Translations under genes and position numbers: made by a program
Notes under the pieces: generated by a model
Told to the model about the DNA's origin: nothing
Database searches by the model: none
What the model saw: only the letters and a program-made list of their open reading frames with translations
Part shown: positions 6,819 through 57,405 of the stretch, piece after piece
How positions within the stretch are numbered: position 1 is the first letter of the stretch
Layout of the letters: each line of letters begins with the position of its first letter
Assembly (NCBI GenBank): GCA_036170475.1
Contig: JAVHPE010000095.1
Coordinates: forward strand, 36,906-100,905
DNA: 64,000 nucleotides
DNA from: Bacteroidia bacterium
Lineage (GTDB): Bacteria; Bacteroidota; Bacteroidia; 2-12-FULL-35-15
Reading direction: 5' to 3'

Positions 6819-7926
6819 AAAACTGATACCCTAAGCCCCATTCAAAATAATCGGCTTTAGCCCAATGTGTAAGAAGTGTAAAATTTGCGATAAGGTGTTT
6901 TGTAACCAAATATCTTAACCCAACACGATGAAAAAATATTCCATTATAGGCTTGTTTTTTATACACATAAATACCAAAATCAACAGGCAACGAAAGTCTG
7001 TTCATATTAAAAGAATAACTAATTTTTACCCCGGACTGAGCAATATCGGTAATTTTATCCGTGACTATGGAATCATTTGCCCATACTTGTTTGGTAGCAT
7101 TGTTATACGCAATTTCAATACCACCACCTAATTTGTTTTTATAATTTAATGTTCGGTATAAATTTGCCTGAATTCCGTATGCAAAATATTCAGGCCCCCC
7201 TGGATTTTCAAGTTCTTTAATCCCAAAAACACCAATTACAGAAGGTTGCCAAATTTTTTTCGCGGGATAAATCGTATCCTTTTTGTATACGCAATTTTTA
7301 TTACCAAAAGCGTACCCTAAGCCCAAATTAACAGTAGCCATGTTTAAGCCTAAGTTGGGTGTACTCATTGCCGCATTAGAAGCGTGTGTTAAGCCAACAC
7401 CTGCATCCAATCTCCATCCTTTTGAAATCATTATAGCTGAACTCAACCGGAAGTTAACAAAGCCATTAAAATGAGAACCAATGACTCCATTTTGATGATT
7501 TTCGATTCTATCAAAATCCTTCGTTAGGTAGGCCAATCCAACTCCAATCCGAAAATTCAATCGGGCTTTCCGATAAAGTTTATTTAAACGAATATTTGTA
7601 TATGGGTAAAAAGCCTCCAGATTGCCCAGTTGTTGAGGATTCGCCAGATACATGTGCAAAAAGCAAACGCCAATTTCAGGATATTTGTGGATTTGCTGCC
7701 ATGTTTTAGTGCCATCCGTACGAAAAATATAATTTACCTCTGCGCCATAAATATGCCCCTTAATAACATTCGCCATATTATTTCGATGACTAATGATAAA
7801 ACCATAATGCCCTTGTCCGGATAGTAAAAAATCATGTCCCGGCATATTTTGAGCCATTGATGAAGCCGGCAATATCCATATAACTAACACTATTAATATC
7901 CTAAGCAGCTTACTCTGTTTAAACAT
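6817..7926 (-). CDS. Outer-membrane beta-barrel protein, acyloxyacyl hydrolase / PagL-like (lipid A deacylase family)
   Basis: 369 aa with a signal peptide. Contains the GVGLTHASNA (H-x-S-N) motif typical of PagL-family hydrolases. C-terminal aromatic residue (..GLGYQF). Confidence 0.5.
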   Translation of the reverse strand: MFKQSKLLRILIVLVIWILPASSMAQNMPGHDFLLSGQGHYGFIISHRNNMANVIKGHIYGAEVNYIFRTDGTKTWQQIHKYPEIGVCFLHMYLANPQQLGNLEAFYPYTNIRLNKLYRKARLNFRIGVGLAYLTKDFDRIENHQNGVIGSHFNGFVNFRLSSAIMISKGWRLDAGVGLTHASNAAMSTPNLGLNMATVNLGLGYAFGNKNCVYKKDTIYPAKKIWQPSVIGVFGIKELENPGGPEYFAYGIQANLYRTLNYKNKLGGGIEIAYNNATKQVWANDSIVTDKITDIAQSGVKISYSFNMNRLSLPVDFGIYVYKKQAYNGIFFHRVGLRYLVTKHLIANFTLLTHWAKADYFEWGLGYQF

Positions 7927-8100
7927 TTGAAAAATAAAAAATTTTAGTTAGCGAAATTATTAAAATTATTGGTTTAAAAAGCAATTACGCAACTAACGAA
8001 ATTACAAGAATTTACACATCCAAATGAGATAATTAGTAAATTCGGTAGAAAATTTTGCTAAAGTTTGTCAAAGTATATCGAATGTAATTTAAAAAAAACA

Positions 8101-32909: not shown

Positions 32910-33968
32910 ATGGCAAAAATAAAACAAAACTCATTTTTCAAAAAAACAATAATTGCGTTATTTCTTATTCTGGTAATTGTTGGTGGGATAGGAGGATATT
33001 ATGCCTACAAAACTATTTATCAACCCAATATTAATTCAATTGATAAAAAATCACAAATTATTTATATCCCAACAGGATCAAGCTTTACAGATGTTATGGA
33101 TATTTTAAATGAACATAGTATTTTAAAAAATCAATCAACTTTTGAATTCCTTGCAGAAAAAAAGAAATATAAAAATGCGGTAAAACCTGGTAAATACCGC
33201 ATATTAGCTAATATGAGCAATAATGCATTGATTAATTTATTAAGAGCAGGAATTCAGGAGCCTGTCGAACTGAATTTCAATGGAATAAAAACCACCAATC
33301 AGCTTATTTCCAGACTGTGCCGAAGAATTGAAGCTGATTCGATTTCACTTTATAAAGCAATGAATGATAATGACTTTTTAAGTAAATACGGCTTCAACGC
33401 TGGTAACGTGCAAACTTTATTTATCCCTGATACCTATAAATTTTATTGGAATACTTCTGTAGATGAATTTTTTGAGCGGATGTATAAAGAGTACAAAAAA
33501 ATCTGGACAACTGCACGTAAGAAAAAAGCTATTGAAATTAAGTATTCGCCAACAGAGGTGGCTATATTAGCATCTATTGTTCAGGGAGAGCAGTGTTGCG
33601 ATAATTCAGAAAAGAAAATAATAGCAGGTTTGTATATTAATCGTTTAAAACAAGATAAATTATTACAATCTGATCCTACCGTTATTTTTGCGATTGGGGA
33701 TTTTTCCATTCAACGTGTTTCATTTGAACAAACACATTATGAATCACCTTATAATACTTATCTTAACAAAGGCTTACCTCCAGGTCCCATTGGTTTTGCT
33801 CAGGAATCTTCAATTGATGCCGTTCTCAATTATGATAAAAATAATTACATTTTTATGTGCGCTAAGGAAGACTTATCCGGGAAACATTATTTTTCTACCA
33901 GCTATGAACAGCATTGTGTGTTCGCACAAAAATATCGTGATGCTTTGAATAGTAGAGGAATTCATTGA
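32910..33968 (+). CDS. mltG: Endolytic murein transglycosylase MltG (YceG family)
   Basis: 352 aa with an N-terminal TM anchor. YceG-like domain (..LASIVQGE......II.LYINRL......LQSDPTV.....). Confidence 0.85.
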   Translation: MAKIKQNSFFKKTIIALFLILVIVGGIGGYYAYKTIYQPNINSIDKKSQIIYIPTGSSFTDVMDILNEHSILKNQSTFEFLAEKKKYKNAVKPGKYRILANMSNNALINLLRAGIQEPVELNFNGIKTTNQLISRLCRRIEADSISLYKAMNDNDFLSKYGFNAGNVQTLFIPDTYKFYWNTSVDEFFERMYKEYKKIWTTARKKKAIEIKYSPTEVAILASIVQGEQCCDNSEKKIIAGLYINRLKQDKLLQSDPTVIFAIGDFSIQRVSFEQTHYESPYNTYLNKGLPPGPIGFAQESSIDAVLNYDKNNYIFMCAKEDLSGKHYFSTSYEQHCVFAQKYRDALNSRGIH

Positions 33969-40656: not shown

Positions 40657-40884
40657 CTTTTTTGAGTTTCAAATTTATTAGGGAGTCAAATATAGTGAGA
40701 TGCTTGTTTGGTTTGAAGTGCTGTTTGGAATGTTAATAACAAGTGCTTGAATACTAAATAATTACATTATTTTTTGTTGAAAAATTTAAAATGTTCAGAA
40801 TTAATTCTAACTATCAAAGCAATTTAACCCGTCATCAGGATTTAATAGGTTCTTGAGGTTGCCTCTATTTGCATGAGGGATTGC

Positions 40885-40948
40885 AATGGAAAGCCCGCAG
40901 CGCAGCGAGGACTTGTAATGGAAAGCCCGACCCGCAGCGCAGCGAAGG
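40885..40948. repeat. GC-rich ~27-nt direct repeat x2 (aatggaaagcccg..cgcagcgcagcga(g/a)gg) in the divergent intergenic region
   Basis: Read directly. Stands out against the AT-rich background. Confidence 0.6.
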
Positions 40949-41035
40949 GGCATGCCCAAAAATAATCCTGAATGGTGTAAATTATCTATATTTGTTTATA
41001 AGAAACTGTCAGTAAATTTATTAATATCACTAAAC

Positions 41036-41782
41036 ATGATTTCAAAATTGAGTAAAATAGCAGTGATTGCACTGTTCTTTGCGAGCTGCGATAATATGAC
41101 CATTTCAACCGGTGATGGTTCAAAGAAAATAACCGGTAACGGAAAAACCGTTTCTGAGTTGCGTGAAATAAAATCGTTCAATGCAATTTCAATAGATGGA
41201 GTTTTTAATGTTATTCTGGAGCAGGGAAGTAAAGAAAGTGCAAAAGTAGAAACCGATGAAAATATTTTACCAGTAATTATTACAGTTGTTGAAAACGATA
41301 CATTGAAGGTAAAAATGAAGGATAGCACTTCTGTCCACAAAATGACCAAATTGGATGTGTTTATAACCCTTGTATCAATTTCAAGTATAAAGACTGTTGG
41401 AGTAGGTAGTTTGAAAAGCACAAATACATTGCATTTAAAAGATCTTGATTTGAATTTTGAAGGTGTAGGTGCTACGGAAATAAACCTGGAAGCAGATAAA
41501 TTAACAGTCGAATCAAAAACCGTTGGTGCCTTATTATTATCGGGTCTTGTAAAAGAAACAACAATTAATCATAATGGTGTTGGGATAATACATGCCTTCG
41601 ACTTAAAATCAGAAAAACTAATACTACATACAAGTGGAGTTGGTGCCGCAGAAGTATTTGCATCGCAGGAACTGACGATTGACGCATCAGGCATAGGTGG
41701 CGTAGAATACAAAGGAGGAGCCACTATAAAAGAAATTAAAAATGATGGAATTGGAAAAGTTGTTTGTATGGATTGTAAATAA
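41036..41782 (+). CDS. Lipoprotein, DUF2807/GIN-domain family (paralog of 5985..6761)
   Basis: Lipobox LFFASC. Repetitive G-V-G beta-solenoid-like repeats. The ORF is open from 40952, but the signal peptide starts at Met 41036. Confidence 0.6.
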   Translation: MISKLSKIAVIALFFASCDNMTISTGDGSKKITGNGKTVSELREIKSFNAISIDGVFNVILEQGSKESAKVETDENILPVIITVVENDTLKVKMKDSTSVHKMTKLDVFITLVSISSIKTVGVGSLKSTNTLHLKDLDLNFEGVGATEINLEADKLTVESKTVGALLLSGLVKETTINHNGVGIIHAFDLKSEKLILHTSGVGAAEVFASQELTIDASGIGGVEYKGGATIKEIKNDGIGKVVCMDCK

Positions 41783-47706: not shown

Positions 47707-49779
47707 ATGGCCGAATTAGTTCCGATACCGTTTGACCGACTTTTAAAGAGAATTTTCTACGAATATAAAAAGACCGACTCCATCTTTGATTTGTCCTCAA
47801 AAAAGATGTACCAACCGGGAAATGAATTTGATTTATCGGTAAATTTTCTTGGTAAAAATGCTGCAAACCCCGTTGGCCCGGCAGCTGGACCTCATACACA
47901 ACTCGCTCAGAATATTATCCTCGCCTGGCTTGCCGGATCAAGAATACTGGAACTCAAAACCGTTCAGCTCAACGACAGGCTTGAAATTGCAAGACCTTGT
48001 ATAGATATGGCTACCATCGGTTTCAATACCGAATGGTCACAGGAACTTTTACTGGATGAGTCTTTGCATGAATACGTGAAAGCTTCGATGATTATTGAAA
48101 TTCTGAAGCATTGGATGTTTCTTTCCGACAAAACTAAATCGTATACTGCCAAACAATTTGATACTATTTTAGATCTCAGCGTAGGCTATGACCTTGCCGG
48201 GATACAATCAGATAAGATGCGCAACTGGCTGCATTCTATGCGGAATGCAAGTTCTATTATTGAAGAATACAGGAAACAAATTCCATCCGAATTTACAGCT
48301 TACAAAGACCTGTATTTCAATCCTGAAATCAGCGAAACAATAACGCTTTCCACCTTTCATGGAACAAAGCCGGAAGAAATTGAAAGCATCTGCGAATTTC
48401 TTATTTCCGAAATGGATTTTAACGTGGTTGTCAAGATGAATCCTACCATGCTTGGTAAGGAAAAACTCGAGTACCTGTTGCATGAAAAGCTTGGATATAC
48501 ATATATTGAAGTCAATGAAAACGCCTATAAAGCAAACATTGCCTACAATGATGCTGTTGAAATGATAAAAAGATTGCAAGTTAAAGCGGCTAAGTCAGGA
48601 AAAAAATTGGGTGTTAAATTTGGGAACACACTTGAAGTAGTTAATAAAGGTGGTTTTCTGAAAAGCAATTTACAATATTTATCTGGTCAGCCTCTACACA
48701 TCCTACATCTGGCCTTGGTAAATGAATGGAGAAAAACCTTTGGCGCGAATTTCCCGGTCTCTTTTTCAGCAGGCGTTGATGCAAATAATTTTGCTGATTG
48801 TGTATCCATCGGACTTTTGCCGGTTACCACCTGTACCGACCTTTTAAGACCAAAAGGGTATGGACGACTACCGCAATATCTTCAGAATTTAGAAATGAAG
48901 ATGAAAACAAGCGGTTCAAAAAACATTAGAGAATTTATTATTAAATCAGCTAATAATCCCCCCTGCCCCCCTTTTCAAGGGGGATTAACTCAGGATGGAA
49001 GCGCAACTGATGCAATCCCCCTTGAAAAAGCTTGTCCTGAGCCTGTCGAAGGAGGGGGCAGGGGGGATTATTTTGAAAAAGCGGTCATTGCCAATACTTC
49101 TAAACTTCTGAAAAGGAGCATCGAGAATCCTCGCTATCAATCTATCAATAACAGCAAAGCTCCAAGGAAAGTAGGAAGTCACCTGCATCTTTGGGATTGC
49201 CTTAACTGCGATAAATGTATTCCTGTTTGCCCAAATAATGCTAATTTCTTTTTTGATATAGAAGCTGTTGAACTTGACTATTCAAACATTGAAGTGAATG
49301 AGACGGGATGGAAAAAAACAGATGGAGGACATTTTAAAATTGAGAAAAAAAATCAGATTGCAAACTTTGCAGATGCCTGCAACGAGTGCGGCAACTGCGA
49401 TGTATTCTGTCCGGAAGACGGGGGACCTTATATCGAGAAACCGAAATTTTTCGGATCGTTGGAGGCATTCAAACTTAATAAAAATCAAAGCGGATTTTAT
49501 CTTGACTTCAAGCAAAATAAATCTTCATTGACAGGCCGGTTCAAGGACAAGGAATTTGAATTGACTGGGGATTCTATTTTGAACAGGAATGTTTTCAGTT
49601 CAAACACAGCAGCCATTGAAACAAACGCAAGTACACATGAAATATTAAAAGCTTCATTGATCAATTCAAAAACAGGAATGATTGACATGCAATACTACCA
49701 TGCCATGTCAGTCTTGCTGAAAGGAATGTTAAACACAAGCCGTGTACATTTCGTAAACATTGAAGCACACCAATCATAA
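47707..49779 (+). CDS. YgfK-like Fe-S oxidoreductase subunit (putative selenate reductase YgfK family N-terminal region with 2x[4Fe-4S] ferredoxin motifs; lacks the GltD-like flavoprotein domain)
   Basis: 690 aa. The N-terminus is recalled (not aligned) as YgfK-like (..PIPFDRLLKRIFYEY..). Ferredoxin motifs CLNCDKCIPVCP and CNECGNCDVFCP. Carries an in-frame GC-rich palindromic insert at 48951-49074. Confidence 0.55.
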   Translation: MAELVPIPFDRLLKRIFYEYKKTDSIFDLSSKKMYQPGNEFDLSVNFLGKNAANPVGPAAGPHTQLAQNIILAWLAGSRILELKTVQLNDRLEIARPCIDMATIGFNTEWSQELLLDESLHEYVKASMIIEILKHWMFLSDKTKSYTAKQFDTILDLSVGYDLAGIQSDKMRNWLHSMRNASSIIEEYRKQIPSEFTAYKDLYFNPEISETITLSTFHGTKPEEIESICEFLISEMDFNVVVKMNPTMLGKEKLEYLLHEKLGYTYIEVNENAYKANIAYNDAVEMIKRLQVKAAKSGKKLGVKFGNTLEVVNKGGFLKSNLQYLSGQPLHILHLALVNEWRKTFGANFPVSFSAGVDANNFADCVSIGLLPVTTCTDLLRPKGYGRLPQYLQNLEMKMKTSGSKNIREFIIKSANNPPCPPFQGGLTQDGSATDAIPLEKACPEPVEGGGRGDYFEKAVIANTSKLLKRSIENPRYQSINNSKAPRKVGSHLHLWDCLNCDKCIPVCPNNANFFFDIEAVELDYSNIEVNETGWKKTDGGHFKIEKKNQIANFADACNECGNCDVFCPEDGGPYIEKPKFFGSLEAFKLNKNQSGFYLDFKQNKSSLTGRFKDKEFELTGDSILNRNVFSSNTAAIETNASTHEILKASLINSKTGMIDMQYYHAMSVLLKGMLNTSRVHFVNIEAHQS
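48951..49074. repeat. GC-rich nested palindromic element inserted in-frame in the ygfK-like CDS
   Basis: Outer IR aataatcccccctgccccc / gggggcaggggggattatt. Inner IR tttcaagggggatt / aatcccccttgaaa. Confidence 0.75.
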
Positions 49780-57272: not shown

Positions 57273-57405
57273 TATACCAACTGCACGTAAGTCATATTGA
57301 GCCTGTCGAAATATGTGCGATGGCTTCTTAACATAATGACTTAGAAAATCTTCTCCCATCCAACCAAATAAATTCTTAAATTAGCCATTCGAAAAAAGAA
57401 TAATT

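Follow-up and report, generated by a model that had tools for sequence, protein, structure and literature searches.

The Rickettsia palindromic elements (RPEs) are palindromic repeats that lie in-frame in unrelated protein genes, where they are tolerated as extra surface peptide segments (PMC10969869). Each is a single unit of about 100-150 bp with a conserved encoded peptide, and CGTC forms the end of some of them (PMC3733652). Repetitive extragenic palindromes (REPs) carry an unpaired GTAG or CGTC tetranucleotide at one end, and intragenic in-frame REPs have also been reported (PMC3733652). In the REPIN model, which concerns REP doublets, what moves is the doublet together with its spacer, and singlets decay from doublets (PMC3116915). 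The present analysis concerns a GC-rich nested palindrome at positions 48951-49074 of a 64,000-nucleotide stretch of contig JAVHPE010000095.1 from a Bacteroidia bacterium (GCA_036170475.1), here called the window. The palindrome lies in-frame inside the gene of a YgfK-like Fe-S oxidoreductase.

Comparison with related genes divides this palindrome into three insertions. The comparison uses protein alignments together with a DNA alignment, A2, of the window with two related loci, L001 and L002. In L002, whose protein (P0002) has 660 residues, the site is empty and reads AAATCAGATAA / AACACAGGATGGAAAGGCAACAGATGC / CTTTGAAAAAGC. In L001, whose protein (P0003) has 671 residues, a single uninterrupted 33-nt insertion, AATCCCCCTTGAAAAGGGGGGCAGGGGGGATTA, follows GATGC. 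The window gene carries 90 extra nucleotides, made up of insertions of 33, 33, and 24 nt. Both 33-nt insertions are copies of one unit, called U, in opposite orientation. At 33 of 33 positions, the left copy matches the L001 insertion read in reverse complement, and the right copy (49014-49070) is split after TTGAAAA by the 24-nt module H. The two copies are separated by host codons, whose peptide is kept as TQDG[KS]ATDA in close orthologues (Table 1). No target-site duplication is seen at any junction in the DNA alignment with L001 and L002. The gene survives because all three insertion lengths are multiples of three and free of stop codons. As far as sequence comparison goes, the locus shows stepwise, seamless, and frame-preserving insertion of two repeat families into a permissive loop. 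The likely explanation is a pile-up of three miniature REP-like insertions in a disordered, variable linker, by selfish units that moved in trans.

Table 1. Coordinates of the host gene, of the parts of the palindrome, and of a related intergenic hairpin (positions in the window)
Feature	Position	Strand	Remarks
Host gene	47707-49779	+	690-aa protein resembling N-terminal YgfK, with 4Fe-4S dicluster motifs
Left copy of U (TAATCCCCCCTGCCCCCCTTTTCAAGGGGGATT)	48954-48986	+	Encodes N417-L427; in no other orthologue (alignment A2 and protein alignments)
Native host codons TQDGSATDA	48987-49013	+	27-nt spacer between the U copies; L001 and L002 have them at the same place
Right copy of U, part one (AATCCCCCTTGAAAA)	49014-49028	-	Opposite to the left copy; identical to L001 4275-4289
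Module H, 24 nt (AGCTTGTCCTGAGCCTGTCGAAGG)	49029-49052	+	Encodes ACPEPVEG; nested in the loop of the right U copy; not in L001 or the left copy
Right copy of U, part two (AGGGGGCAGGGGGGATTA)	49053-49070	-	One G>A at 49053 beside H; 15 + 18 = 33 nt, as in the L001 33-mer
Intergenic relative of H, CATATT-GAGCCTGTCGA-AATATG hairpin	57292-57316	+	Contains the exact 13-mer TTCGACAGGCTCA

The first-pass annotation of this DNA had described a GC-rich stretch in an AT-rich genome, with a 19-bp outer and a 14-bp inner inverted repeat, translated without a break in the reading frame. All of this is borne out. GC content in 100-nt windows is 0.50-0.52 here against 0.339 for the whole window, which is high for the genome, not extreme. 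The outer repeat (48952-48970 / 49054-49072) is 19 nt long and 100 % complementary (19/19), and the 14 inner base pairs are the perfect core of a 22-nt repeat that is 86 % complementary (48972-48993 / 49007-49028). Open reading frame (ORF) 47707-49779 reads through the palindrome, with NNPPCPPFQGGLTQDGSATDAIPLEKACPEPVEGGGRGDYF as the in-frame translation. With up to three mismatches, the 19-mer of the outer repeat has two sites in the 64 kb, where 0.01 are expected; none of 100 shuffled sequences reaches two.

Both repeats derive from a single 33-nt unit that is present in two inverted copies: the outer repeat is formed by the outer ends of the U copies and the inner repeat by their inner ends. 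Two synonymous ACA>ACT changes found only in the window, at 48990 and 49008, extend the inner stem by 4 bp (TCAG/CTGA). Folding, which had been proposed as a check, bears out the structure: as RNA, the 136 nt at 48945-49080 fold at -72.5 kcal/mol on either strand (z = -7.4 and -6.9), and none of 200 shuffled sequences is as stable. This strong fold, of about -72 kcal/mol, arises from pairing between the two inverted U copies and not from any single unit.

One part of the earlier description fails. It had taken the region for one nested palindromic element of about 120 nt, inserted whole and in-frame as an RPE would be. The strength of the palindrome, its GC content, its frame, and its absence from orthologues all suit such an element. 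However, alignment A2 refutes it: the central 27 nt are host codons of the empty-site orthologues. In addition, a one-copy intermediate exists in L001, the parts come from two unrelated families, and the 124-nt whole is found nowhere else. A single element is thus scarcely credible. The absence of other copies, which was to count against the first-pass reading, holds for the 124-nt whole and does not hold for the parts, whose families are widespread.

Palindromes are also a known source of assembly and sequencing artefacts, and in a metagenome-assembled genome (MAG) such a structure could come from chimeric or fold-back reads. Two Logan contigs (L296 and L299) do break off precisely where the left copy has its outer edge. 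Nevertheless, these two independent assemblies of the same strain, from different runs, reproduce the region base for base. The one-copy state occupies the same site in an unrelated ENA assembly (L001), and the reading frame is preserved. An artefact, the least probable of the explanations considered here, is excluded because independent assemblies reproduce the composite.

The contig break is an observation in its own right. Position 1 of both L296 and L299 corresponds to window position 48955, the outer margin of the left 33-nt copy, and no repeat of at least 31 nt lies there. The contigs derive from the strain read sets SRR25490518-48, and contigs from the upstream side of the break are too short to reach the host gene. 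Coverage may have dropped at the hairpin, or the population may be polymorphic for the presence of the insertion.

The distribution of the insertions can be compared with the history of the gene. A neighbour-joining tree of 659 ungapped columns joins the window protein to the empty-site protein P0002 at 93.5 % bootstrap and leaves the U-bearing protein P0003 outside. DNA comparison in 150-nt sliding windows places the window nearer to L002 than to L001 nearly throughout, with ties in three windows. Around the insertion site, identity is 0.87-0.95 to L002 versus 0.76-0.83 to L001. The 33-mer, though, is identical in the window and L001 although the two genes are only 82.4 % identical. If the U copies were orthologous and drifting, the chance of such identity would be about 0.002 (0.824^33). 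Recombination as the cause of this patchy distribution was considered and rejected, as the sites shared by the window and L001 form no tract larger than U itself.

The identity of U and its conflict with the gene tree suggest recent or recurrent seamless insertion. For the right copy, the compared sequences would allow either an independent insertion at the same bond, a precise loss in the P0002 lineage, or constancy imposed at the level of the nucleotide sequence. The left copy and the nested H are specific to the lineage of the window.

Unit U belongs to a family of larger hairpins. A metagenome scan with the long arm fixed and the loop free returned 52 loci, nearly all of which are perfect hairpins of about 43 nt, AATCCCCCCTGCCCCCC-TTTnnnAAA-GGGGGGCAGGGGGGATT. 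On contigs of 36-64 % GC, the family keeps its stem and varies in its loop, and the hairpin folds at -26 kcal/mol (z = -6.9). U corresponds to this hairpin minus 10 nt, which gives a frame-preserving 33, and the outer repeat of the window is exactly the arms of the family. Members are mostly extragenic, with 5 of 41 copies in long open frames versus 491 of 820 random positions (60 %). Even so, the family is found in-frame in three unrelated genes, which encode an immunoglobulin-like/type IX secretion system (Ig-like/T9SS) protein, an MMPL transporter, and an ABC-F ATPase.

The first of these genes, in L244, encodes 2,357 residues. At L244 3540-3620, a partial extra arm, GGGAAATCCCCCCGA-AATCCCCCC, precedes the in-frame 43-nt hairpin, so that the total insert is frame-preserving. 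It reads as another case in which the length of the 43-nt family has been adjusted inside a gene.

A larger context, AATTGATTnGGAAACTnGCCTCTGA-[43-nt hairpin]-TCTGGGnnCGGGCGTGGCCnTAAGC, is conserved in several unrelated metagenome contigs, at L277 8215-8305 and in L293, L289, L246, L278, L272, and L260. This context, for which Rfam has no match, suggests either a composite element of larger size or an RNA that has escaped recognition. Rfam returned nothing in the whole window or in seven 43-nt-hairpin loci; at the palindrome, all microRNA-like hairpin matches were below threshold. The papers searched contain nothing relevant to the U-family and H motifs as literal sequences. A loose hairpin pattern run over genome contigs returned mostly generic terminator hairpins, from all phyla. 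At the protein level, an exhaustive search for carriers of the insert peptide found just two tandem-repeat translations. A word-indexed protein search gave no match for the insert peptide and missed its positive control too.

Module H represents the second family. It holds the 17-mer CCTGAGCCTGTCGAAGG of a cross-phylum family at 49036-49052, and this 17-mer occurs in at least 120 viral contigs of 36-73 % GC. Copies stand alone, form inverted pairs, or lie in tandem with a 21-nt period, two neighbouring copies being spaced by 24 nt. In tandem arrays, the natural unit length is 21-24 nt. In the stems that the family forms in viral contigs, covariation reaches only 1-2 pairs past CCT/AGG. A systematic association of the U and H families was rejected: the two occur together at 3 of 134 sites, and no 11-mer is found in 294 kb around 43-nt hairpins.

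A relative of H lies between genes in the window (Table 1), within a unit of about 40 nt, GCACATATTTCGACAGGCTCAATATG..CGTGC (57283-57322), that holds the TTCGACAGGCTCA core. The unit is conserved in L001 (1038-1075), where an inverted second TTCGACAGGCTCA core follows and forms a hairpin pair (1038-1096). A general hairpin motif, with a GAGCCTGTCGA loop and variable stems, was tried and rejected, as the best additional case proved to be native coding sequence. In that case, at 33250-33278 in ORF 32910-33968, a perfect stem of 7-8 bp flanks GAGCCTGTCGA, but the encoded IQEPVELNF is a native part of MltG/YceG and is conserved in all orthologues. The stem is a coincidence, and a caution for motif-based calling of repeats.

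Evidence for why the host protein tolerates these insertions is provided by its orthologues and by a structure model. Among 120 orthologues, two places are variable: the loop that holds the insert and a loop near residue 145. Long unrelated inserts occupy the same loop in the distant orthologues P0104, P0111, P0114, and P0116. In an AlphaFold2 model (mean pLDDT 71), the insert loop sits between helices 407-414 and 454-473, and residues 418-452 have a pLDDT of about 30 and no secondary structure. The first-pass suggestion of a surface loop agrees with this model, in which the insert peptide is predicted to be disordered and of low complexity.

In-frame mini-hairpins recur in this gene family, since P0029 and P0045 carry a different one. 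In P0029 (L295 2425-2470), it is a GC-rich hairpin of 39 nt, GTCACGCGCAC CATGCGCGTGCC, which encodes CGPDVPPVSHAHHARAPI and lies in-frame in the other variable loop, near residue 143. P0045 carries a hairpin of the same kind in that loop.

A hairpin inside a gene may also be there because it is useful. The palindrome might be a selected element of the mRNA or DNA, such as a translational pause between the TIM-barrel-like and Fe-S domains, a stabiliser or processing site, or an attenuator, or it might encode a functional peptide loop. Such a role would agree with the very stable fold on both strands, with the two synonymous substitutions that lengthen the stem, with the perfect conservation of the 33-mer across diverged lineages, and with the T-rich tract ATTATTTTG past the stem. 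Yet selected function is improbable because 118 of the 120 orthologues, the closest included, have no insert, which had been proposed as the test of the insertion. Moreover, there is no Rfam family match, the peptide is predicted to be disordered and of low complexity, and the parts are generic repeat modules that lie mostly between genes. A terminator consensus scan does not flag the palindrome either, and an intrinsic terminator is rejected on that ground.

Three steps of the favoured explanation, a pile-up of REP-like insertions, are visible in the sequences. First, U stands after GATGC at 49014; L001 carries this state alone. Next, another copy of U stands 27 nt upstream in inverted orientation, and by base pairing over the nine host codons the copies restore the parent hairpin's long arms. 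Finally, the 24-nt H, of the unrelated CCTGAGCCTGTCGAAGG family, stands in the loop of the right U copy. The 30 extra residues lengthen a loop that is already variable in other orthologues.

The units themselves may be non-autonomous selfish DNA without a host function at this site. An enzyme of the HUH/Y1 type, such as the REP-associated tyrosine transposases (RAYT) or those of IS200/IS605, would act on them in trans, cutting and pasting them seamlessly as single-stranded hairpins. HUH/Y1 transposition fits best because there is no target duplication, because the units are hairpins by nature, and because the presence/absence pattern is clean. The second copy of U may result from such an insertion beside the first, like head-to-head REP dimers.

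Several points weigh against this explanation. The window contains no Y1 transposase detectable by tblastn, and neither U nor H has the GTAG or CGTC head typical of REPs. As DNA, a lone U folds weakly, with -7 to -8 kcal/mol and a z of about -2, and folding finds no significant structure in H alone; both would therefore be poor substrates for an enzyme that recognises hairpins. U itself is also rare. There are no other copies in the rest of the 64-kb window and none in viral contigs, and the exact 33-mer is not among the metagenome matches for the 43-nt family. Under random transposition, two insertions of so rare a unit within 27 nt would be an odd coincidence.

A point for mobility is a gene of the Y1_Tnp family (IS200/IS605/RAYT type) in L001, at 7660-8016. 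It lies 2.7 kb downstream, begins 120 nt after the xanthine dehydrogenase gene, and is preceded by the small hairpins CCACGACCTTCAGGTCGTGG and GGCTTTAGCC. It is not flanked by U, and it is missing at the syntenic position in the window and in L002.

Another way to obtain the left copy of U is a switch of template during replication. In this model, the left copy is made from the right copy by a nascent strand that folds back with the 27 native nucleotides as the loop, copies the 33-mer in reverse complement, and then switches back, so that one transposition suffices. Hairpins arising de novo by template switching are documented (PMC8794818, PMC5453318), and they resemble the left copy, being exact reverse-complement copies placed tens of nucleotides away, with a perfect stem and an unchanged loop. 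Here, just 27 nt from the right copy, the left copy reproduces its uninterrupted form exactly in reverse complement. The palindrome runs 2 nt (AA/TT) past the unit on both sides, like the microhomology of a return switch, and the two window-specific synonymous changes perfect the inner stem, as in quasi-palindrome correction. The rarity of U in the 64-kb window, viral contigs, and metagenome matches also suits this model.

Against it, the copied tract must end within 1-2 nt of both ends of a discrete 33-nt unit that already existed, for which a template switch gives no reason. The 3 nt beside the unit on its inner side (AAC versus TGC) are not complementary, so copying did not run on. The model also leaves the right copy, its identity across diverged lineages, and the nested 24-mer unexplained. 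A template switch is a serious rival for the left copy, and possible there, though clearly the less probable of the two.

A broader proposal can be made from the same observations, namely that U and H are ultra-small mobile elements of 24-43 nt, capable of seamless insertion and excision and active across many bacterial phyla. This is doubtful. If it were true, the same codon boundary would have been hit independently, or cleanly vacated, in lineages that have diverged by 18 %. The behaviour would be site-selective and homing-like, in units too small for the usual transposon ends. The formation of an inverted doublet from a singlet in situ would then show the birth of REPIN-like doublets.

The host protein matches TIGR03315 (YgfK, N-terminal part) with E = 5e-122, though it stays under the curated threshold and is interrupted at residue 401. 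Fer4 families of Pfam are matched as well. There are about 7,000 homologues, of which the named ones come from Ignavibacteriae/Bacteroidota MAGs, and close orthologues mostly have 660 residues versus 690 in the window.

The next gene after the host ORF encodes a selenium-dependent xanthine dehydrogenase. In the window, its ORF is listed with a TTG start and 881 residues, and overlaps the end of the host gene by 20 nt (49760-49779). In L001, L002, and L296, the gene is called at 870 residues and starts 11-14 nt past the host stop codon; for this reason, the true start in the window is probably a downstream ATG.

Elsewhere in the window, at 40875-40962, two direct repeats of about 32 nt, TTG[CT]AATGGAAAGCCCG(ACC)CGCAGCGCAGCGA[GA]GG, lie between genes upstream of ORF 40952-41782 and reach 68 % GC. 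A related motif, GAAGCGGAAAGCCCGCCCC, occurs at L001 1318-1340. These repeats are another small, dispersed, GC-rich family of the lineage, without an Rfam match.

Among the known systems, RPEs are similar in several respects. The window insert is in-frame, the ORF stays open, the extra 30 residues are absent from the 660-residue orthologues, and the 43-nt family is found in three other genes. The differences are that the units measure 33, 33, and 24 nt and are unrelated in sequence, that the 124-nt palindrome is a composite built around host codons, and that the host is an Ignavibacteriae/Bacteroidota-like organism. The resemblance to RPEs drawn in the first-pass annotation is therefore sound as regards palindromic, probably mobile repeat DNA placed in-frame in a surface loop, and unsound as regards a single unit of about 100-150 bp.

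The likeness to REPs is one of size and form. Both are short (20-40 nt) imperfect palindromes whose inverted dimers fold as one larger hairpin, and there is no target-site duplication, as with HUH/Y1 enzymes. REPs are short stem-loops (stem 5-13 bp, loop 2-20 nt) in many, mainly extragenic copies; across metagenomes, the 43-nt family likewise forms hairpins at 52 loci, and 36 of 41 copies lie outside long ORFs. However, U starts with TAAT and ends with GATT, the bases that flank the 43-nt copies vary and are usually A...T, and neither GTAG nor CGTC stands at either end. Classical REPs are species-specific, whereas the 43-nt stem is conserved across many unrelated metagenomes. Contrary to the REPIN model, the doublet in the window was not moved whole, for its spacer consists of the host's own codons and the relative L001 has the singlet state. 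Nor does the locus resemble MITEs (miniature transposable elements with inverted repeats), which have terminal inverted repeats and a target-site duplication and usually measure 50-500 bp; here there is no duplication and the units are of 24-33 nt.

Mobile GC clusters of yeast mitochondria, which typically have AG/TAG-flanked target duplications and belong to a eukaryotic organelle, are likewise short GC-rich palindromes in an AT-rich genome, sometimes in-frame in protein genes. They have no relationship of sequence or lineage to the repeats of the window. The small dispersed repeats (SDRs) of heterocystous cyanobacteria, reportedly described by Elhai et al. in 2008, are said to be 21-27 nt long, to lie rarely in coding sequence, and to be confined to one cyanobacterial group. 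By that description, they share with the window repeats the size class (the 24-nt H), the nesting of mini-repeats, and seamless presence/absence between related genomes. They differ in that H extends across contigs of 36-73 % GC, and in that H and U lie inside coding sequence here.

The feature is thus a case of REP-like repeats tolerated in-frame, known in kind from Rickettsia and from scattered intragenic REPs. To these, the locus adds a series of states for units of 24-33 nt: empty, one copy, and two inverted copies with a nested second family. It shows that stepwise additions around host codons can produce a conspicuous nested palindrome, and that a singlet can become an inverted doublet where it stands. 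The copies that persist in genes are frame-preserving length variants of an otherwise extragenic 43-nt hairpin. Both repeat families are widespread in metagenomes and probably often give rise to spurious ORFs and to predicted proteins with odd low-complexity loops. Beside RPEs and intragenic REPs, the palindrome stands as an unusually small example of repeats that survive inside a working gene.

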